IMG/VR virus record: IMGVR_UViG_3300036985_002246
Coordinates: 1 to 64,000 of that record
Length of the DNA stretch: 64,000 nucleotides
Reading direction: 5' to 3' (one strand)
Origin: a virus
Every line of letters begins with the position of its first letter. The stretch's first letter is position 1. Shown piece by piece: positions 2,303 to 32,816 of the stretch. Under the pieces are notes generated by a model. That model was given only the letters and a program-made list of their open reading frames with translations, was not told where the DNA came from and did not search any database. Made by a program: the position numbers and the translations under genes.

Positions 2303-3031
2303 ATGGCAAAGTCAGTTCAGGGTCAGGTAGCGAAGCTGTTGGTGGCGTACCGGACGGCAGCAGGTCTGTCGCAGACGGAGCTAGCCCAGAAGATCGGTCT
2401 TCAGGGCTCGGGCTCTCAGGTCCGCGTCTCCTACTGGGAGCGTGGGGTCTACGGGGTCAGCGCGGAGCCGAAGGTGCTCAAGACCCTCGCCAAGCTCCTC
2501 GGGCTGAGCCTCGACGACCTGAACAAGAAGATCGCCTCCGACGAGAGGGCACGTCTCCCCCTCAAGAAGTCTCGCGGTGCCGCCAAGAAGGCCGCCAAGT
2601 CCGCCGCTGCTGAGGAGGCTCCTGCGACGGTGGACCAGAAGGCGGTCGAGACGTACCTCAAGGGAGAGGTCGCCCTCCAGGCGGCTCAGGGGGTCAAGAC
2701 GCTCAAGACCGAGTTCAAGAACCCGGCAAAGGCTCCCCCCACAATTCCCCCGTCGCTCGTCTCAGGTGCGAGCGCGCCCGTCAGTGAGCGAGTCGCTGAA
2801 CTCACGGAGCTTCTCAATCTCCCCGTCGAGATCCCCACCAAGGCTGTGGCAGTCCCCTCCATGTCCAACGGGCTCTCCGCCCAGGAGCACCTCGCCGCTG
2901 CACTGCTCTCCGGAGAAGGCTCCGACATGAGCCCCGCCCGGTTCGTCAGGCTCGCCGAGCAGTACCGCAGGCTCTCCCACGCACTCTCCGAGCAGAGGCA
3001 GCTTCTCGCCCGCCCAGAATCCCGGCTGTGA
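2303..3031 (+). CDS. XRE/Cro-C1 HTH regulator, paralog 2
   Basis: YRTAAGLSQTELAQKIG...VSYWERG; shares QGQVAKL with paralog 1. Confidence 0.8.
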   Translation: MAKSVQGQVAKLLVAYRTAAGLSQTELAQKIGLQGSGSQVRVSYWERGVYGVSAEPKVLKTLAKLLGLSLDDLNKKIASDERARLPLKKSRGAAKKAAKSAAAEEAPATVDQKAVETYLKGEVALQAAQGVKTLKTEFKNPAKAPPTIPPSLVSGASAPVSERVAELTELLNLPVEIPTKAVAVPSMSNGLSAQEHLAAALLSGEGSDMSPARFVRLAEQYRRLSHALSEQRQLLARPESRL

Positions 3032-3294
3032 CCGACCGCCGGGAGTACAACCCCCAAACCTGCCTGACCGCCCGCGAACTCCGGGAGGTCTGGGGGTTGT
3101 CAATCCCGGAATCGATCCCCGACGCAGCCTGGGTCTCCCGCACCGACATGAACGTCTCCTTGGAGGACGTTCATGACGGGGAAGCCGGAGACAAGAACCT
3201 CGTCCTCAACTTCAGAGTCGAGTTCCACCGGCCCTTCGAGTGGATCGAGGCGTCCTTCGTGATCGGACCCGGTGCAAACCATGACGAAGGCTGA
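3028..3294 (+). CDS. Hypothetical protein
   Basis: GTGA overlap with upstream stop; coding-like composition. Confidence 0.65.
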   Translation: MTDRREYNPQTCLTARELREVWGLSIPESIPDAAWVSRTDMNVSLEDVHDGEAGDKNLVLNFRVEFHRPFEWIEASFVIGPGANHDEG

Positions 3295-13264: not shown

Positions 13265-13307
13265 CTCCTCACCCATGAAGCGAACGGGACGGTGCCTTTT
13301 ACACGAT
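13265..13307 (-). promoter_or_regulatory. Conserved phage promoter motif, copy 1
   Basis: ATCGTGTAAAA...CCGTTCGCTT...GGGTGAGGAG. Confidence 0.75.
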
Positions 13308-16119: not shown

Positions 16120-16566
16120 TCACCTGTTACGCTTCCGCATGAGCCATTGGACGAACGTCTGGTTCGATAGAGCGTGCTCTCGGCGTGCCTGGATCGACGA
16201 GATCACTTGCTGTGGGTCGTTCCCCAACTGAATGAGGCTCTCGGCAGCAACCAGTCCCGAGCGGTTCCTGCCAGCCGCGCACGTCACGAGGATTGGGTGA
16301 CCCTCGCTATGAGCCTTCTTGACGAGAGCCACGGCCCGAAGAATCTCCTGGACCTGCGGCTCAATGTTGTCGTCGTCGTTCAGGCGCGCATGGTGGACGT
16401 GAACGCCCCGGACCTCAGTCCCGCCGTACTCGACGAACTCCCACGCGACGTTCATGACGAACCCGAACGGCGTGAGTGGCTCCCCGTAGGCGAGGACTCC
16501 TCCGATCGCGACCTTGTCCCAAACGAACGAGTAGGGACCGAAGGGTGTGAGTATGGGTGTCGTCAC
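16120..16566 (-). CDS. Dual-specificity/PTP-family phosphatase 1
   Basis: CX5R loop LVTCAAGRNRSGLV; SNQTFVQWL. Confidence 0.82.
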   Translation of the reverse strand: MTTPILTPFGPYSFVWDKVAIGGVLAYGEPLTPFGFVMNVAWEFVEYGGTEVRGVHVHHARLNDDDNIEPQVQEILRAVALVKKAHSEGHPILVTCAAGRNRSGLVAAESLIQLGNDPQQVISSIQARREHALSNQTFVQWLMRKRNR

Positions 16567-16576
16567 TTGTGAGATC

Positions 16577-16930
16577 CTAGTCACAGGGTTGGGCGTGCCC
16601 GCTGTCGTCTTTGGGCTCTCCACAGTACGAGCAGAGCCCGTCGCTCTCCCTGAGGTTGAAATCGTGGTGGAACCGACCACACTCGTCACACCGTTCGGTG
16701 TGCCAGTCGGAGTCCATGTCCCGGACGTGGTTGTGATCGAGCAGCGAGGTGCCCTTCCTGTCCACGCGGGAGAGGCGGGACTCGACAGACTCGGACGGCT
16801 GGTTGTTGCGGAGGTACTCGAACATATCCTCGCGGGTCATTTCCGGGGTGCAGTACTTGTCCACAATGCTCGACCACTCGCGGTAGCGGGGTCCGTCGGG
16901 CGTGTTCCTTCGTTCAATCCAGCGGGGCAT
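16577..16930 (-). CDS. Hypothetical protein with a C-terminal Zn ribbon
   Basis: CDECG...CSYCG. Confidence 0.65.
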   Translation of the reverse strand: MPRWIERRNTPDGPRYREWSSIVDKYCTPEMTREDMFEYLRNNQPSESVESRLSRVDRKGTSLLDHNHVRDMDSDWHTERCDECGRFHHDFNLRESDGLCSYCGEPKDDSGHAQPCD

Positions 16931-22574: not shown

Positions 22575-23512
22575 GCCTGCTCCGACCAGAAGATCTCCTG
22601 GGCCTCGACGCAGAGAGCGTTGAGCTTCTCCATGTCGGGGTGGTCCGGGAGGGTCGAGGTTGCGTAGAGCCGGTCGATCTCCTCGTGGCCTCGCTCGGCT
22701 TGCTCGATCAGTTGGTCGTAGGACCAGACCCCCCGGCGGATCGCCAGGAGTTCCTCAGCGTCCGGGCGCTTCACTTTCACGCCCTTCCCAGCGAGTAGCT
22801 CCAGGCACATTCGGAGGAGCCTCACGAGGTGCATTGCGTGCTTCGTGTCGTAGCCGAACTGCGCTTCGAGCACAGCCCGCTTCTCGTTCCTCGAAGCCTT
22901 CCACGCCACATACTGGTTCCAGTGCTGGGTGGCCGAGCGGAACTGCTTCTCCAGTTGGACGTACTGCATGACGTTCGGGTCGATCTCGACCTCGTCACCC
23001 TCAGTCTCGGTGCTGAGGAGCTTGTCGAATGCGCCCATCATGTCGGGGGTGATCTTCATGGACCCCAAGCCGAACTCCGCCCTCTCCGGCTTGTGGTCCG
23101 GAGGCGAGAGCAGCCACTTGCGGTGGGTCTTGATCCGCTTGAGTTGGGCGACCGCGTACCCGGCGAACGTGTGCCGGGCCTTCTTCGAGAGGAAGAGGTC
23201 GCGGTGGTCGCGGAGCAGTGAACCAGAGCGTGTGATCTTCAGGACGTTCGATTCGTCCACGAACAGCACCTCGATCACGTTCGGGTTGCAGTCCGCCGCG
23301 AGCTTGCAGAACTTCTGCACGTTGTAGACAATGCTGTCGTTCGGGACGCTGCTCACCTGTTGCTCGAAGCCCTGGGCGAACCCCAGGACGATCTCCTTGG
23401 GAGCGACCGCGAATCCACGCACGTCCACGTCGGACTCCGGAAGGGAGGTCCCGTAGGCGTGGCTGCCATGCGTGGCGAGGAACACTGTGTGCGCTGCTAC
23501 GTCGAAGTCCAT
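22571..23512 (-). CDS. DNA polymerase beta-superfamily nucleotidyltransferase (RlaP/YcgL-like)
   Basis: HGSHAYGTSLPESDVDVRG (GS...DxD); NPNVIEVLF; GYDTKHAMHLVRLL. Confidence 0.85.
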   Translation of the reverse strand: MDFDVAAHTVFLATHGSHAYGTSLPESDVDVRGFAVAPKEIVLGFAQGFEQQVSSVPNDSIVYNVQKFCKLAADCNPNVIEVLFVDESNVLKITRSGSLLRDHRDLFLSKKARHTFAGYAVAQLKRIKTHRKWLLSPPDHKPERAEFGLGSMKITPDMMGAFDKLLSTETEGDEVEIDPNVMQYVQLEKQFRSATQHWNQYVAWKASRNEKRAVLEAQFGYDTKHAMHLVRLLRMCLELLAGKGVKVKRPDAEELLAIRRGVWSYDQLIEQAERGHEEIDRLYATSTLPDHPDMEKLNALCVEAQEIFWSEQA

Positions 23513-25820: not shown

Positions 25821-26516
25821 CTACTCTACGCTCGGGAGACTTCTCGCGTAGGCTCGAACCAGCCGTTGGTAGTCCATGCTCGGAGCGCCTGCTGCTGTCT
25901 CCTGGGAGACGATCTGCAACGCGGTGCCCACGTCCATTCCCGAACGGATCATGAGCCCGGCAACGAGCGCCCCGGTTCGGTCTGCCCCTAGCATACAGTG
26001 CAGGTAGAGGACCGAGCTTGGGATCGACCAGTCGTGGTAGATCTCGTGGAGGTACTCGACCAGTCCACCGAAGTTCCAGCCGGGCGACTTGAGAAAGACC
26101 TCAGGGTTCCCGGTGTCCTGCTCCGACATTCCCTCGAAGGGCCACCACACCAGGTTGGCCTTCGAGCGGGTCTGACCCTCCGGACCGAAGTGAAGAACTC
26201 CGTTCCCCAGCGGGATCCTCGGAGACCAATCTGGCTGGTGCAGGTACGGGGGCCAGTTTGCTGCGGGGTAGCCGTCCGTCGAAACCTGGAACGCCTCGAA
26301 CTCCTCGGCCCAGGAGCCACGCTCGCCCGTGTTGTCGATCAGCGAGACGCAGAGGAACCGGTCGTCGCTGAAGGTCATGTCGAGGGTGTTCTCAATCTCC
26401 CGGTACGCGAACTTCCCGTCGATCAGGGGGAGGTTCCCACGCACCATGAGGTGAGGCGACTTGAAGTTGGGGAGGTGGATCTCTGAGACCCTCTTGGGGT
26501 CGAACGTCGTGCTCAT
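25821..26516 (-). CDS. Protein-tyrosine-phosphatase-superfamily protein 2
   Basis: LYLHCMLGADRTG (HCxxGxDRTG). Confidence 0.8.
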   Translation of the reverse strand: MSTTFDPKRVSEIHLPNFKSPHLMVRGNLPLIDGKFAYREIENTLDMTFSDDRFLCVSLIDNTGERGSWAEEFEAFQVSTDGYPAANWPPYLHQPDWSPRIPLGNGVLHFGPEGQTRSKANLVWWPFEGMSEQDTGNPEVFLKSPGWNFGGLVEYLHEIYHDWSIPSSVLYLHCMLGADRTGALVAGLMIRSGMDVGTALQIVSQETAAGAPSMDYQRLVRAYARSLPSVE

Positions 26517-27253: not shown

Positions 27254-27517
27254 ATGGAAAAGACTCACCTCGCCACTGTCACGGACATTCGGATCGCTCG
27301 GGTCAAGAAGCTCGCCCGAGCGTTCTTCAACGACCTGTCGGCCCCAGTGCTCGACCAGGACGTGGTGCCGCTGGCGTTCGAGTTCGTGGAGACCCTGAGG
27401 ACTTCAGGGCAGATCCCGACCCCTCACGTCAAGGGCGTCCTCACGAGACACACGGACCTGATCGACCTCCTCGACACGCTCAGGCGTGAGAGGGTCAAGC
27501 GTCAGAACCGGGGCTGA
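27254..27517 (+). CDS. Hypothetical protein
   Basis: ATG at 27254 downstream of GTCTATAC. Confidence 0.55.
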   Translation: MEKTHLATVTDIRIARVKKLARAFFNDLSAPVLDQDVVPLAFEFVETLRTSGQIPTPHVKGVLTRHTDLIDLLDTLRRERVKRQNRG

Positions 27518-28110
27518 GACTGGATCGCGTTTCGGGCCAGGTAGAGCACATGGCGGCAGTCGAGCGCGTCCTTGAGGGCCGAGTGCGCCCCGACCTTCGA
27601 CATTCCCAGGTGGTCGCGGATCTTGTCGAGGCTGAGCCCAGGTCCGGTCCCTGACCAGTTCCACGCGACGTAGGCGAGCGAGACCGTGTCGATCTGGTGG
27701 TAGGGGATCCGAACGCCCAACCCCTCGCGGGCGAAGGCCGACTTCAGGAAGTTCGTGTCGAACGTCGGGTTGTGCCCCACGAGGGTACCGGTGCTCGCGA
27801 GCAGCCCCGCAATCTCGTCAGCGTAGTCGGCGAACGGCAGGGTGCCCTCCCACTCCTGGGGCGTGTAGCCGTTGATCTCCAGGGCCTTCGGGTGGGCGGC
27901 TCGAATGTGGATTGGGCGGATCTTCCGCTCCCACGTCTGAATGATCTTGCCGAGATCGTTCGGGTTCTCGGGGACCTCCTCGATCACGATAGCGATCTCA
28001 ATGATCTCGTGACAGTTCGGGTCGAGCCCGGTCGTCTCGGTGTCGAGGTAGAGCCGGGTCGGTCGGCGGACTTCGTGCGGCTCACCCAGCGTCTGCTTCT
28101 CGTTGCTCAT
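27502..28110 (-). CDS. DEDDh 3'-5' exonuclease (DnaQ/RNase T-like)
   Basis: YLDTETTGLD, GHNPTFD, IDT, HSALKDA. Confidence 0.9.
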   Translation of the reverse strand: MSNEKQTLGEPHEVRRPTRLYLDTETTGLDPNCHEIIEIAIVIEEVPENPNDLGKIIQTWERKIRPIHIRAAHPKALEINGYTPQEWEGTLPFADYADEIAGLLASTGTLVGHNPTFDTNFLKSAFAREGLGVRIPYHQIDTVSLAYVAWNWSGTGPGLSLDKIRDHLGMSKVGAHSALKDALDCRHVLYLARNAIQSQPRF

Positions 28111-28112
28111 TC

Positions 28113-28340
28113 TCAGTCCCTCCGGCAGCATTGATTGGGTTGGGCCATTGCCCGCTCTGCAAAGACTCGAAGCTCAGCGACCTCAGCGGAGGGCAGGCTC
28201 TTGAAGTACGCTCGGGCCTCGTTGAACGTCCGCGACCACTGTGCGTAGACACGGACCCCAGCGTCTGTGCTGGCGGTCGTGTGGAGCGCCCTGCGGACCC
28301 AAACGTCCGCGAGGATCTGGTCCTTCGTGAAGGCACGCAC
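28113..28340 (-). CDS. Hypothetical protein
   Basis: Operon packing. Confidence 0.5.
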   Translation of the reverse strand: MRAFTKDQILADVWVRRALHTTASTDAGVRVYAQWSRTFNEARAYFKSLPSAEVAELRVFAERAMAQPNQCCRRD

Positions 28341-28355
28341 GACCCACCTTACTCC

Positions 28356-28667
28356 TCAGCGGCGCTCTGCCATTTCCTCGTCGTGGCGCTCGCGGTCGCC
28401 CTCCATGTGGTCGAGCGCGAGGTCCACAAGCTCAGCGTGGTATTTCGCGACCCACGCTGTCAGCGCAGCACCGGTCAGCACGTCCATTGTGTAGTCCGGG
28501 GCGGGGTCCGCCACGGTGGCGGGCCAGATCTCAGCCTGGTCGGGATCGACGACGAGTTCCGGCTTCTCCCACTCGCAGTCCTCGAAGGTCACCACGAAGT
28601 TGACGAGCGCCTGGGTGCCGTCGGCAGCCTTGAACTCTGTCTCCCGGACTGTGTATTCGCGGTGCAT
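28356..28667 (-). CDS. Acidic hypothetical protein
   Basis: First gene after promoter copy 7. Confidence 0.65.
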   Translation of the reverse strand: MHREYTVRETEFKAADGTQALVNFVVTFEDCEWEKPELVVDPDQAEIWPATVADPAPDYTMDVLTGAALTAWVAKYHAELVDLALDHMEGDRERHDEEMAERR

Positions 28668-28670
28668 TGT

Positions 28671-28714
28671 TCCCTCACCTTCTAAGCGGTTCGCGGGGGC
28701 TCCGATTCACGATT
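28671..28714 (-). promoter_or_regulatory. Conserved phage promoter motif, copy 7
   Basis: AATCGTGAAT...GAACCGCTT...GGTGAGGGA. Confidence 0.7.
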
Positions 28715-28722
28715 CGACCCCC

Positions 28723-28764
28723 AATCGTGAAAAGAGTCTCACCCCGTTCGCTTAGGGGTAAAGG
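28723..28764 (+). promoter_or_regulatory. Conserved phage promoter motif, copy 8 (upstream of the ncRNA)
   Basis: AATCGTGAAAAG...CCCCGTTCGCTT...GGGGTAAAGG. Confidence 0.75.
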
Positions 28765-28769
28765 AGAGA

Positions 28770-28927
28770 GGTTCGGGTCCAGAAAGCTGCGCTCGCTGAA
28801 AGTAGACGTTTGGCCACGTCGAAATCGCGGGTTGGCCAGTCCAGGTGTAGCTGGTTCGATTCCAGCGGGGTTGCACCCGTCCCAATGGTGGGAGTACACG
28901 GCGAGCGCAGCTTTCTGTACCCGAGCC
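28770..28927 (+). ncRNA. tRNA-mimic, Y-RNA (YrlA)-like structured RNA
   Basis: Perfect 17-bp stem 28780-28796/28901-28917, extending to about 27 bp; T-arm GCTGG-TTCGATT-CCAGC 28850-28866; hairpin GGGT-TGC-ACCC; D-arm-like TCCC-AATGGT-GGGA 28880-28893. Confidence 0.7.
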
Positions 28928-28935
28928 AAACGGAA

Positions 28936-29280
28936 ATGAACAAGATCCAGGTGCCCCCCAAGTGGGGAATGCTCACGAGCGAAGGGAACCGTGCTCTCAG
29001 TCGGAAGGCCAAGACCGTCGCTCGCAAGATCGAGAAGCTCGCAGCCTCTGGAGAGGCAACCCCGGCGAACGTGAGCCAAGCACTAGTCACCTACCTGGGG
29101 TCGTGGCTCCGCTCTCAGGAGCACCGGACCACTCACGAGGCGGGGGACGCCGCCGTCCGAGATTGCGTAGGGGACTTCCACGACAAGCTCTGGAACCACG
29201 TCTTCGGGGGTAACGGAGACACCATGTGGGACGCACACCTCGCAGCCGCCTACCGTCGCCGAGAATCCGAGGCCAAGTGA
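28936..29280 (+). CDS. Hypothetical protein
   Basis: HEAGDAAVRDCV motif; GTGA overlap downstream. Confidence 0.65.
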   Translation: MNKIQVPPKWGMLTSEGNRALSRKAKTVARKIEKLAASGEATPANVSQALVTYLGSWLRSQEHRTTHEAGDAAVRDCVGDFHDKLWNHVFGGNGDTMWDAHLAAAYRRRESEAK

Positions 29281-30273: not shown

Positions 30274-30669
30274 ATGAACACCCAGACCACGACCCCCACG
30301 AAATCCTTCCGCGTCGGCGACATTGTCCAGTTCGGGCGCACCCACGGCGAGAAGACGCGAGGCCGGATCCTCCGGATCTCCGCCAAGTCCCTCTCGATCG
30401 AGACGATCGAGGAGCGCGGCAACGGTCGCGGGTCGGCGGTCGGGAAAAAGTGGCGCGTTCACCCGTCGCTCGTCCAGGCGGTCTCGCCGAACTCGGCCAG
30501 CCCGAGCCCCTCCAACTTCGGGCTCTCGCCCTACGCGACCCTTCGGGCGAACGTGGACTCGGCCCAGGACAACTTCCTCACGAAGGCTCTCGACTTCGGT
30601 CTGGGCGCTCCGGTGACGGTCGAAGCCTTCAACAACCTCAAGGCTGCTCTGGCAGCCATTGCCGCCTAA
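30274..30669 (+). CDS. Hypothetical protein with an SH3-like N-domain
   Basis: FRVGDIVQF...GRILRI...WRVHPSLV. Confidence 0.7.
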   Translation: MNTQTTTPTKSFRVGDIVQFGRTHGEKTRGRILRISAKSLSIETIEERGNGRGSAVGKKWRVHPSLVQAVSPNSASPSPSNFGLSPYATLRANVDSAQDNFLTKALDFGLGAPVTVEAFNNLKAALAAIAA

Positions 30670-31880
30670 CGGCTGGCCAGACGATCTCGAACGAACGCCT
30701 GTAGGCGGTCCGGGTGATACGCCAAGATTGGCGACGCCAGGATCGCCTCAATGGCGATCTTCGAGATCTCTCCGCGTTCGCGGCCTTCGAGCTTGAACTC
30801 CTCGATCAGCGCGACGCTGTTGATCGCGGGCTTCCTGAGCCGGTCGAAGAACTCGCTGGCCTCGTCCCGGTCCATTGGGGTGGTGATCTCCCTGAGTCGG
30901 ATCTGCTGGATCTTCGTCAGGAAATCGACCGGCTTGGACCCGAGCCCGAGGTCTGCCAGGTCGAGCAGGAGCCCGACGTTGCGGTTCTGGGTGAACTGCC
31001 CCGCCATGTACGCGGCGAAGGGCCTCTCGTCCCGGATCATGTCGGCGAGGGTGTCGATCAGCCCGAGTGACGCCATGGTGAGCAGCGACTCGCGGGCGCT
31101 GGGGGTGCCCAGAATGTCGCGCACCAGGATCGTGGCGACCGCCTCCCAGGGCATTTGCTTCATTTTCTCGGCGTTCTGCCTGATTGAGGCAGCCACAGGG
31201 GGCGCGATCTCCAGGTCATACTTGATCAGGAACTTGATCGCCCGGAGCATTCGCGTCGGGTCGTCCCCGAACGTCTTGTCGGGGTCGAGGGGCGTGTGGA
31301 TCAGCTTCTGTTCGAGGTGGCTCTTCCCGAGCCCGGTGAGGTCGATCACCTCCGCCTTGTCGGGGCCTTCCGCGAGGTCCAGGAGCCGCCACAGCAGCGT
31401 GTTGAACGTGAACTCCCGCCGGTACACGTCCTCCTCGATCGTGGCGGGCTGCACGTCCGTGGGCTTGTAGCCCTTGCCCTTGCCGCCGGACTCCCCGTAG
31501 GACTCCTTGCGGGCGTTGGCGATCTCGATCACCTCGCCCTTCATGGGGATCTCGTCGAGGAACCAGTCGCTCTTCACGGTGAGGATCGCGACGCCGTACT
31601 GGTTGGTCGTGAGGTTCGTCTGGGCAGGAATGTCCTTGGCGATCTGCCTGGCGAACCAGTCGGAGTCCTTGCCTCCGAGAGCCAGCGAATCCACAACGAC
31701 ATCAATGTCTTTCGGGGCAAGTCCCAGCAGGTGGTTCCTGACTGCCCCACCCACAATGTAAATGTGCTCGGCGACGCCTAGAGAGATGGCGATTCTTGAA
31801 AGGAACTTCATCAGGGCCGTCGCTCGTTGCTCTGCGGATTGGACAAAGCGGGAGGCGACAGAGATTGGGGATACAGTCAT
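30666..31880 (-). CDS. cca: Class II tRNA nucleotidyltransferase (CCA-adding enzyme family)
   Basis: VGGAVRN...KDIDVVV; ARKESY loop; DVYRREFTFN; FGDDPTRMLRAIKF; no poly(A)-polymerase GRRF signature seen. Confidence 0.85.
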   Translation of the reverse strand: MTVSPISVASRFVQSAEQRATALMKFLSRIAISLGVAEHIYIVGGAVRNHLLGLAPKDIDVVVDSLALGGKDSDWFARQIAKDIPAQTNLTTNQYGVAILTVKSDWFLDEIPMKGEVIEIANARKESYGESGGKGKGYKPTDVQPATIEEDVYRREFTFNTLLWRLLDLAEGPDKAEVIDLTGLGKSHLEQKLIHTPLDPDKTFGDDPTRMLRAIKFLIKYDLEIAPPVAASIRQNAEKMKQMPWEAVATILVRDILGTPSARESLLTMASLGLIDTLADMIRDERPFAAYMAGQFTQNRNVGLLLDLADLGLGSKPVDFLTKIQQIRLREITTPMDRDEASEFFDRLRKPAINSVALIEEFKLEGRERGEISKIAIEAILASPILAYHPDRLQAFVRDRLASR

Positions 31881-31895
31881 GCTATGTGCTCGCTA

Positions 31896-32612
31896 TCAAG
31901 GCACGACCGAGCTACGGAGCTTCTCGAACCTTGCCTGGTGTGACTTACGCATCTTCTGTTTGGTCTCCTCACTGAGCTTCGTTCCAGTACGCGCTACCCG
32001 CAGTGCCTCACGCCCCTCCTGACTGAACTGTGGCTTCACACCCAGCGAGGCTTCCCTATCCCTTCTCACCTTCTGTGCCTCTATCATCTTCTGTCTCGTC
32101 TCGTCGGACGCCTTGTGCCCTTGGTGCGCGAGGGACAGCTTCTCTCGAAGCGGAGCAGGCATTTTGCGCTCTCTGCTCTGCCATGCTTTCTGGAGCTTCA
32201 GACTCACTTCAGGGCGCTTTTTCCCTCGAAGTGGGGCAATTCTCTTTTCCACAACCTCTGTGGATTGCTTCTTCCCCACTTGAGCCATTCTCATGTTCAA
32301 TCGGGCCTGGTCTGAGGCAGACCCACCTCCGTCACCACCTCTTTTCAGGTTGTACCCATGTGGCACCAGGGTGCCGAGGGTGGAGATCCATTCCACCTCT
32401 TTTCGGTTGAGGTCGTCCTGGTCTACCGCCACGTCTAGGACAGTGACCTCAAAAGACTCAGCCCCATACTTGGCGACGGCTGCTCGAAGCGCAGGGCAAC
32501 CACCCTTCCGGTGCTGCCCCCACCTCCGGACCACTTCCTGAACAGTCTGACCCACATAGCCCTTTTGATTCGTGGTGCAGCGGATCAGATAGACGTGGCC
32601 GTAGGGGCGCAT
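31896..32612 (-). mobile_element. Free-standing GIY-YIG homing endonuclease with NUMOD3-like repeats
   Basis: GHVYLI...GYVGQT...RWGQH...E...GYNL; HxxSxETxxKM repeats; visibly more AT-rich than its neighbours. Confidence 0.88.
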
Positions 32613-32667
32613 GGATCGAGCATAGCACCGCCACAACCATGTCAATGTCCCTGATTGGCAGATCCCA

Positions 32668-32708
32668 ATCGTGAAAAGCAGTCCGCCCCACCCGCTTAGA
32701 GGGTGAGG
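32668..32708 (+). promoter_or_regulatory. Conserved phage promoter motif, copy 10
   Basis: AATCGTGAAAAG...CCCACCCGCTT...GGGTGAGG. Confidence 0.75.
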
Positions 32709-32816
32709 CGGTTGGAGTGGCAAGAAGAGCCGGAGCGACAGGAAGCCGAGGCCAAGCGCCAGCCGAGGGACCCCAAACAAGGGGACCCTGAGGGCACCCT
32801 ACGGGGTGCCCTTTTT
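32704..32816 (+). ncRNA. Candidate ~110-nt small RNA, or a 24-aa peptide gene (32717..32791)
   Basis: Bounded by promoter copy 10 and an intrinsic terminator; stems GGCG.TTGG/CCAA.CGCC and GGG.CCCC/GGGG.CCC. Confidence 0.45.
32791..32816 (+). terminator. Rho-independent terminator
   Basis: AGGGCACCC-TACG-GGGTGCCCT followed by a T run. Confidence 0.8.

Follow-up and report, generated by a model that had tools for sequence, protein, structure and literature searches.

A conserved tRNA-like RNA element in a predicted split ribosome-binding site of an uncultured giant phage

In this study, we analysed a window of 64,000 nucleotides, namely the first 64 kb of the 199,475-bp IMG/VR virus record IMGVR_UViG_3300036985_002246 (~64% G+C; estimated 45% complete). 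The genome-wide counts and searches given below refer to the whole 199-kb record. Between two divergent genes of the window, an open reading frame (ORF) on the - strand at 28356-28667 and the + strand gene ORF114 at 28936-29280, lies a 158-nt element (28770-28927, + strand). As judged from its sequence and from those of its homologues, the element is a functional, conserved, structured RNA read from the + strand, and it appears to combine a YrlA-like tRNA mimic with a split ribosome-binding site (RBS). We favour a reading, to which we give about an even chance, in which the element would be the leader of the ORF114 mRNA, its long terminal helix would hold together the two halves of the RBS, and its tRNA-like cap would dock a factor that recognises the tRNA elbow or the T-arm.

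The fold of the element is framed by a terminal helix, in which the 5' strand (28770-28798) pairs with the 3' strand (28899-28927). The segment 28780-28796 is the exact reverse complement of 28901-28917, and in the RNAfold prediction the pairing extends to 29 bp with one C.U mismatch (28779/28918) and U.G wobbles. The predicted folding energy was -91.7 kcal/mol (z = -8.4), and none of 200 shuffled sequences folded as well. The opposite strand folds about equally stably, and the strand was therefore settled by the comparison of homologues described below. The 5' strand of the terminal stem reads GGUUCGGGUCCAGAAAGCUGCGCUCGCUG, and its segment GGTCCAGAAAG (28776-28786) is invariant across all variants. 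The sole irregularity of the helix is the C.U pair in the window, and it is replaced by a G.G three pairs higher in the other variants.

Inside the terminal helix, a side (V-like) hairpin is followed by a T-arm, a closed acceptor-like hairpin and a D-like hairpin. The side hairpin (28805-28841) reads GAC..TGGCCA..GTCGAAAT loop..TGGCCA..GTC. Its TGGCCA...TGGCCA part at 28811-28838 holds GTCGAA, its loop GUCGAAAU is invariant in the variants, and its stem shows wobble-compatible changes; in contig L025, for example, a U-A pair is changed to U.G and an A-U pair to G.U with the pairing kept. In the RNAalifold consensus, the base of a cloverleaf is then formed by the anticodon-stem-like helix P2, in which GUGUA (28845-28849) pairs with UACAC (28895-28899). 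The minimum free energy fold of the single sequence uses GUA (28802-04) with UAC (28895-97) in place of P2, and the two alternatives cannot be distinguished because the helix is invariant. With P2, the RNAalifold fold consists of two stacked junctions, a four-way one (P2, T-arm, acceptor-like and D-like hairpins) above a three-way one (terminal helix, side hairpin and P2).

The T-arm, GCUGG-UUCGAUU-CCAGC (28850-28866), is canonical (G53-UUCGA-C61). U54, U55, C56, R57, A58 and the G53/C61 pair are all present and invariant, and the sole change among the variants is a U to C at loop position 59 in L045, a position that varies in tRNAs too. The acceptor-like mini-hairpin (28867-28878; GGGT-TGC-ACCC at 28868-28878 in the window) has 3-4 bp; its stem is kept, with a change from G-C to G.U, and its loop is free (UGC, CAA, UAA or CCA). 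The D-like hairpin (28880-28893), UCCC-A(A/U/G)UGG(U/C)-GGGA in the variants and TCCC-AATGGT-GGGA in the window, has an invariant stem, first loop A and GG, and varies at loop positions 2 and 6. This order of arms within a terminal stem is that of a circularly permuted tRNA, as in YrlA. An L-shaped fold, in which the T-loop and the D-loop would meet at an elbow, is plausible and reasonable to suppose, short of a result. Every sequence detail that an initial annotation of this DNA had listed for a promoter-driven tRNA mimic with YrlA-like architecture was recovered at the positions that it gave.

The 199-kb genome contains 43 canonical T-arms against 0.78 expected from shuffled sequences, and all but two of them lie in the tRNA array or in the tmRNA gene. 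The T-arm of the element is one of the two. The other, GGACG-TTCGATT-CGTCC at 23242-23258 (+), is antisense in the RlaP coding region, has no surrounding structure and fits the chance expectation of 0.78. That the element is itself a tRNA gene was considered and rejected: its acceptor stem is closed and only 3-4 bp long, it has no anticodon loop, and both the tRNA finders and the Rfam tRNA comparison came back empty. ARAGORN reported no tRNA gene in the window, and Rfam 15 at gathering thresholds, run on the whole window, left the element unmatched, with no tRNA or T-box. When the threshold was relaxed to E <= 10 on 28600-29050, just a partial T-arm match to tRNA-Sec (13.9 bits, E 7) and a chance miRNA match appeared, and there was no YrlA match.

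Loci with the element were found through ORF114 homologues, one metagenome pattern scan and a search with the divergent 129-aa neighbour. The close protein homologues of ORF114 were on short metagenomic contigs. The element was present in contigs L024, L025 (= L031, L043), L028, L032, L033 and L045, which together with the window give six distinct sequences (alignment A5). In five further contigs, compared by gene order and gap length only, the gene order is identical and a gap of ~272-290 nt stands at the same place. In A5, 98% of the cells are paired, and four terminal-helix pairs are changed on both sides. The covariation score was 0.117, compared with 0.068 for shuffled alignments; it was reached in 0 of 500 shuffles and collapsed when the partners were slid against each other. 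With the covariance model of the element family, the + strand reached 195 bits and the - strand 40 bits, and several helix pairs are G.U or U.G, combinations that the opposite strand would turn into A.C. These compensatory changes, the G.U pairs and the difference in model score together argue that the element acts as an RNA read from the + strand. A palindrome acting at the DNA level, such as a cruciform or a protein site, was rejected because of the strand asymmetry and the G.U pairs. Thus the claim of a conserved structured RNA close to a promoter, with the arm order of YrlA, is borne out by the fold, the six homologues and the + strand model score.

The inner domain is far better conserved than its surroundings. 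Between the window and the other lineages, identity was 88-98% in the inner domain, 83-97% in the 5' strand of the helix, 72-79% in its 3' strand, 69-74% in the first 125 nt of ORF114 and 40% in the spacer before the ATG. Changes in the inner domain are limited to the acceptor-like loop, T-loop position 59, the second and last bases of the D-loop, bulges and pairs kept as wobbles; the one exception to pair-compatible change is an A.C cell in the L024 side hairpin. The T-loop UUCGA, the A and GG of the D-loop, the side-hairpin loop and every junction base are invariant. This pattern indicates a specific tertiary fold or binding surface that is carried on a stem of freely changing sequence. The initial annotation had allowed that the segment might prove to be only the 5' leader of the ORF at 28936, with unconserved bases in the T- and D-loops. 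It does appear to be that leader, but the loop bases are conserved, so that objection falls and the element would be both, a leader and also a conserved domain of tRNA-like form.

A predicted promoter precedes the element. The motif at 28722-28757 (+), CGTGAAAA (28726-33) ... CGCTT (28749-53), would serve the element and ORF114, and the conserved promoter noticed earlier is therefore real, being one of 17 genomic copies of CGTG(A/T)AA(A/T)-N(12-18)-CGCTT, which often stand as back-to-back divergent pairs. Here the partner copy at 28681-28716 (-, motif at 28706) belongs to the divergent - strand gene and is followed on that strand by CGCTTAGA-AGGTGAGGGAACA-ATG. In the window, the motif is found at 13305, 18929/18945, 19322, 23559, 28706/28726, 32670, 34734, 36839, 39835/39931, 60593 and 62642, and in the rest of the genome at 161570/161595, 162908 and 163386; motifs of this type are also present in the related contigs L041 and L026. 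Most of the copies that were inspected continue into GGTG(T)AAGGGAGA, a GGTG..AGGGAGA-type Shine-Dalgarno (SD) sequence, and after ~5-9 nt into the ATG, all within ~25 nt, and longer leaders follow the copies at 32670, 34734, 39835 and 62642. The promoter region of the element is 80% identical to those of the homologous loci. Since no sigma-70 consensus match was found at the element, the motif is taken as phage-specific. Transcription should start upstream of the SD, because the SD must be contained in the transcripts of the other genes with this motif.

The SD of ORF114 lies directly 5' of the helix (AGGAGAG, 28762-28768, +). Its predicted pairing with the anti-SD is -8.8 kcal/mol (-9.2 in the homologues), which is stronger than in ~90% of a crude set of gene starts (median -3.6), and it is predicted to be mostly unpaired (P 0.70-0.91), as are both flanks of the helix. 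On the other side, the spacer from the helix to the ATG (28928-28935, +) has 8 nt here and 8-10 nt in the homologues and contains no SD, with anti-SD energies of -0.3 to -3.5 kcal/mol in all variants. The SD and the AUG are ~167-170 nt apart; removal of the element would leave 9-11 nt between them in every variant. Downstream of the element, no terminator-like site was found. An N-terminal extension of ORF114 into the element, where the frame is open from TTG 28810, was rejected on account of an in-frame TAG in L024/L025 and a spacer longer by 2 nt in L028/32/33. The N-terminal motif IxVPxxWxM of ORF114 is conserved also in L026, and ATG 28936 is therefore taken as the start.

The related contigs also provide empty sites. 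The ORF114 homologues in L026 (63% identity) and L041 are preceded by a similar promoter and have no element, and their strong SD lies 6-7 nt upstream of the ATG; L042 was also without the element in the model search. Therefore, the element is best regarded as an insertion into an RBS, with the helix closing the gap. The SD and AUG lie beyond working distance, no local SD is present, and the helix base at 28770/28927 leaves 9-11 nt. We infer from this arrangement that the element RNA makes a split RBS of the type of T4 genes 38 and 25, and we predict that translation of ORF114 would depend on it. In T4 (Nivinskas 1999; Malys and Nivinskas 2009, as reviewed in PMC3014915), a hairpin shortens the SD-AUG distance from 22 to 5 nt in gene 38 and from 27 to 11 nt in gene 25.

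Taken together, the leader reading would run as follows. The phage promoter would transcribe the element as the leader of the ORF114 mRNA, and the 29-bp helix would close the insertion so that the SD on its 5' side and the AUG on its 3' side come to an effective 9-11 nt. The conserved cap would then serve as a docking platform for a protein recognising the tRNA elbow or T-arm; proteins of the nearby tRNA-repair island or the Ro60 of the phage are candidate partners. A protein bound at the junction, beside the SD and AUG, would set the translation of ORF114 and of the genes behind it. The cooperation of SD and AUG across the helix, the T/D-like elbow, the binding partner and the action in cis are the parts of this scheme that we infer.

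Several observations weigh against it. The known variants are only six, close to each other (95% mean column identity) and confined to one small clade of uncultured giant phages. Covariation in homologues, which had been proposed as a check, is found in the terminal helix and confined to it; the T, acceptor-like, D-like and cloverleaf helices are invariant and are neither backed nor contradicted. Most members of the ORF114 family lack the element, so the gene can do without it. With 9-11 nt and, in addition, the width of the helix, the effective spacing is among the longest that still work. The near-perfect 29-bp duplex is of the kind that RNase III classically cleaves, and such a cut would separate SD and AUG and speak for release instead of an action in cis. 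The likeness to tRNA has its own weak points: the acceptor-like stem has merely 3-4 bp, the D-like loop of 6 nt (4 nt if A-U closes) is shorter than the canonical one and adds nothing to the YrlA or tRNA model scores, and the junction of the RNAalifold fold is without an equivalent of the variable loop.

Searches beyond these contigs returned no further copy. The window had no blastn or megablast match among 50,697 phage records, and neither flanking ORF had a tblastn match in phages. IMG/VR, searched through ORF114 and three DNA patterns, gave no copy of the element, and neither did 185,579 prokaryote species genomes (GTDB) with the inner-domain pattern. The covariance model R1 found the element as a single copy in the 199-kb genome and no copy in the phages Mx1, Coruscant and Wally or in the contigs L026, L041, L042 and L044. 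A 24-bit R1 match at 84.2 kb was rejected as driven by the T-arm, with many non-pairs, in a tRNA-like repeat region. A 23-mer covering the V and T-arm had one match in GTDB, which was an unrelated tRNA-Ser in a Desulfobacteraceae metagenome-assembled genome; a host-derived miniature inverted-repeat transposable element (MITE) and an attP-type tRNA fragment were rejected.

The initial annotation had noted that no Ro60/TROVE gene is in the window. This holds for the window, but the same phage encodes a Ro60/Rsr orthologue outside it, at ~84.74-86.47 kb on the + strand (84,736-86,475; L006:1736-3475), ~56 kb from the element. It matches vWA_Ro60 (PF25045, 2e-18), TROVE above the curated cut-off and phrog_850 (1.5e-45), and it aligns over its full length with D. 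radiodurans Rsr (PDB 2nvo, 2e-20); the closest protein is that of Myxococcus phage Mx1 (46% identity). The Ro60 gene sits within an array of 37 tRNA genes, and a tmRNA gene is at 134.7 kb. Eight Y-RNA-like genes were found in the gaps between tRNA genes near Ro60 (77.5-81.3 kb). Two regions gave full-length matches to Rfam YrlA, 80150-80285 (48.1 bits) and 79520-79624 (33.6 bits), both in inter-tRNA gaps upstream of Ro60 and on the same strand, compared with a gathering cut-off of 69 bits for RF02553 and with 36.1 bits for the YrlA of mycobacteriophage Wally as a control. The RNA at 80150-80285 has canonical T-, acceptor- and D-arms, and that at 79520-79624 has no D-arm. When folded, all eight share a module consisting of an outer stem NNNNGA/UCNNNN, an internal loop AU(G/A)CUCG opposite CUCUCGUC, an inner stem and GGGA(C/G/U)UACA; in all of them the outer stem is accompanied by an AUGCUCG/CUCUCGUC loop and the module GGGACUACA.

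The element contains no block of this shared module. On Rfam YrlA (RF02553) it scored 11 bits (E 4.4) over model positions 27-81 only, and junctions of tandem tRNAs in the same genome scored 15-23 bits, so that the Rfam comparison suggested earlier (YrlA, tRNA) gave no significant score. GNCGAAN0-1G is absent from the 5' strand of its stem; GUCGAAAU occurs only in the loop of the side hairpin and without the trailing G, and the caution in the initial annotation that GTCGAA in a side hairpin might mean something other than a standard YrlA was well placed. YrlA genes lie within ~4 kb of Ro60 (Chen et al. 2014, PMC4201824), and their arm order within a terminal stem is a circularly permuted tRNA layout (PMC4201824; bioRxiv 10.1101/312249). 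On these comparisons the element appears to resemble YrlA in layout and to fail the defining features of the family, and the membership in YrlA or Y RNAs that had been claimed for it, at 11 bits, without the shared module and ~56 kb from Ro60, is not upheld.

Two further regions with tRNA-like sequences were observed. Around the Ro60 gene of Mx1 (OR576727.2, L013), the unannotated gaps of the tRNA/Ro60 region gave Rfam matches to tRNA (41.7 bits) and to a tRNA-Sec-like sequence (33.9 bits) at 1427-1501 and 2981-3065, and the Ro60 neighbourhood gave no YrlA match at E <= 0.5. In the present phage, the gap 83,875-84,460 between tRNA-Pro and tRNA-Ser has no ARAGORN gene and carries three canonical T-arms (83,982; 84,274; 84,332) and three repeats of a unit that resembles class II tRNA-Ser and has the odd T-loops GGGGATCG/GGGGTCGGGTCC. 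These may be missed tRNA or tRNA-like genes.

ORF114 encodes a four-helix-bundle protein (AlphaFold pLDDT 86.7), whose homologues show 61-73% identity. It has no relative in Pfam or PHROG and no Foldseek match in the PDB below E 0.2, and in the Atlas it matched only unnamed viral clusters; its family comprises 149 representatives at E <= 0.001. In diverse phage contigs, an RNase_T/DEDDh exonuclease gene regularly lies within one or two genes 3' of the ORF114-family gene (L026:339-1973, L041:804-2085, L042:2501-3679, L033:2975-4640), and this proximity suggests that the two form a functional pair.

Genes of RNA repair are found within 13 kb of the element. On the - strand of the window lie a DSP-type phosphatase (16120-16689), an RlaP nucleotidyltransferase (PF10127, 22571-23512, 2e-19), a second ORF with a DSPc match below the cut-off (25821-26516, 18.3 bits versus 33.5), a DEDDh/RNase T-like exonuclease (27502-28131) and a CCA-adding enzyme (30666-31880). 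According to PMC7824862 and bioRxiv 10.64898/2025.12.29.696909, RlaP and CCA enzymes serve jumbo phages in the repair of tRNA ends. A GIY-YIG/NUMOD3 homing-endonuclease-like gene (31896-32780, -) adjoins the CCA-adding enzyme gene. The other clade has, in succession, dCTP deaminase, CCA enzyme, 129-aa gene, element, ORF114, 109-aa gene and exonuclease; the 129/131-aa gene and the CCA gene form a block that is inverted between the two arrangements, and the GIY-YIG gene may explain this local inversion relative to the relatives. In both gene orders the element stays joined to ORF114, with the CCA gene within ~2 kb. Neither RNase III nor RtcB was found in the 199-kb record, and Rnl1 was not found in a search of that record run without a positive control. 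Directly downstream of an Rnl2-type RNA ligase gene (PF09414, 164,901-165,374, E 1e-27), and ahead of a gene that has a separate SD, the record contains a second element with a 29-bp stem (165,955-166,064), which folds on the + strand into a three-way junction with two 8-bp hairpins (-82.6 kcal/mol). It may be a further processing or regulatory RNA tied to RNA repair.

The terminal helix can also be read as a processing site. At 29 bp, and thus at least about two helical turns, it suffices for RNase III, so that a host enzyme might cut it and free a stable RNA of ~130-145 nt, made up of the cloverleaf and a short remaining stem. Like a Y RNA, but together with a partner of its own, this product would serve tRNA repair or quality control in trans, be it as scaffold, as decoy or as regulator, the translation of ORF114 being secondary or changed by the cut. 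We regard such a released tRNA-like RNA, the main rival of the leader reading, as possible rather than probable, and it and the leader reading are not mutually exclusive. Besides the near-perfect helix, it would account for a cap far more conserved than the helix or the gene, as is expected of a product, and it agrees with the RNA-repair context, with the eight Y-RNA-like genes that the phage already uses and with the second 29-bp stem after the Rnl2-type ligase gene, which fits a habit of RNase III-type sites. However, since no phage RNase III was found in the 199-kb record, a host enzyme would be needed; the helix keeps its one irregularity at a shifted position, and such irregularities can restrict RNase III. 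Release also leaves unexplained the placement of SD and AUG, the conserved sum of 9-11 nt and the spacer without an SD. A divergent Y RNA, which would bind the phage Ro60 through the terminal helix or the GUCGAAAU loop and present the tRNA-like domain to an effector, seems to us quite unlikely. GUCGAA is invariant, and so is GGGUCCAGAAAG in the 5' strand, with the partner strand varying and the helix irregularity falling within it; this segment presumably resembles the metazoan Ro-binding GGUCCGA with its bulge. The phage does encode a Ro60, and the arm order equals that of YrlA (PMC4201824). Nevertheless, the score on Rfam YrlA lies below those of tandem-tRNA junctions, the module of the eight Y-RNA-like genes is missing, Ro60 is ~56 kb away, GUCGAAAU stands without its trailing G in a hairpin loop instead of the 5' strand of the stem, and Mx1, the closest phage with a similar Ro60, has no copy of the element.

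A selfish or neutral insertion, that is, a MITE-like or tRNA-derived palindrome that landed between SD and AUG and was tolerated since it is folded away, would fit the terminal inverted repeats, the length of ~158 bp and the empty sites in relatives. It is nonetheless very improbable, given that the element is single-copy in its genome and absent from the 185,579 prokaryote species genomes and IMG/VR by pattern search, that the alignment reveals no target-site duplication or flanking direct repeat, that the compensatory and G.U changes in the arms point to selection on RNA, and that the inner domain is far more constrained than the neighbouring coding sequence. We give equally little credence to a leader that binds tRNA, in which the tRNA elbow would rest on a platform made of the T-loop and the T-loop-like loop GUCGAAAU, and UGG(U/C) would pair with the NCCA end, so that intact and CCA-less tRNAs would be sensed as by a T-box and the repair genes tuned. 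The side loop UCGAAAU does have the T-loop pattern (U1...A5, purine-4) with a G-C closure as in a T-arm, the D-like loop has an invariant UGG followed by a variable base, as in the UGGN of T-boxes, and the CCA-adding enzyme gene is always within ~2 kb. Yet the proposal is purely speculative: there is no Rfam T-box match, no alternative fold of the specifier, antiterminator or sequestrator kind was apparent, the loops are of small size, and an intramolecular contact between T-loop and D-loop reads the same bases more simply. The leader with a split RBS and a docking cap is thus the reading that we carry forward.

To our knowledge, the Y RNAs and other mimics of tRNA described so far are small RNAs that stand on their own, and split RBSs have been described only with simple hairpins. 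Here, a strongly selected tRNA-like domain would stand inside a split RBS, in the middle of a tRNA-repair island of a jumbo phage that also has Ro60, eight Y-RNA-like genes, 37 tRNAs and a tmRNA. Should a factor that recognises tRNA bind to the cap, the state of the tRNA-repair machinery would be linked with translation, and Y-RNA-like modules would prove usable in cis. A bolder version, tentative and somewhat improbable in our view, is that the element would be the first tRNA-shaped sensor in an RBS, in which occupancy of the cloverleaf by an elbow-binding repair factor (CCA enzyme, RlaP, Ro60 or ORF114) or by tRNA ends would switch the translation of the repair-island operon, making it a new class of cis-regulatory RNA related to Y RNAs. 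The RNA motif is new to Rfam 15, and the filled and empty sites in related phages make a clean test system. The reach is narrow, with six close variants in uncultured phages only, and the interest is for RNA and phage biologists.

Compared with known systems, the element is closest in layout to YrlA. Both have a terminal stem made of the 5' and 3' parts and, inside it, a V hairpin (optional in YrlA), a T-arm, a loop-closed acceptor-like hairpin and a D hairpin (D-like in the element), and the phage with the element has Ro60 and many tRNAs. However, the element has neither a GNCGAAN0-1G in the stem nor YUAY, its D-loop is not of the conserved AGUUGGUA type of YrlA, its acceptor-like stem is shorter (3-4 bp), its stem forms a near-perfect duplex of 29 bp, in place of the bulged Ro-binding helix, and it stands between the SD and the AUG of a protein gene instead of being free-standing. 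With T4 genes 38 and 25 it shares an SD and AUG joined by a stable structure that is present in a subclade and lacking in distant relatives; in contrast to their simple hairpins with spans of 22-27 nt, it has 158 nt and a multi-helix tRNA-like cap. The E. coli thrS leader and the T-boxes likewise place a tRNA-related structure in the 5' leader beside the RBS of a gene of tRNA metabolism. Nevertheless, thrS mimics the anticodon arm and not the T/D elbow, and T-boxes bind tRNA and control termination or SD sequestration by alternative folds, none of which was seen in the element. Finally, the RNase III stems of T7 early mRNA and rRNA operons and the Correia/ERIC insertions resemble it in having a long inverted-repeat duplex round an insert and in occurring as filled and empty sites, whereas the element is single-copy, has compensatory changes in its arms and a conserved tRNA-like interior, and its cleavage is putative.

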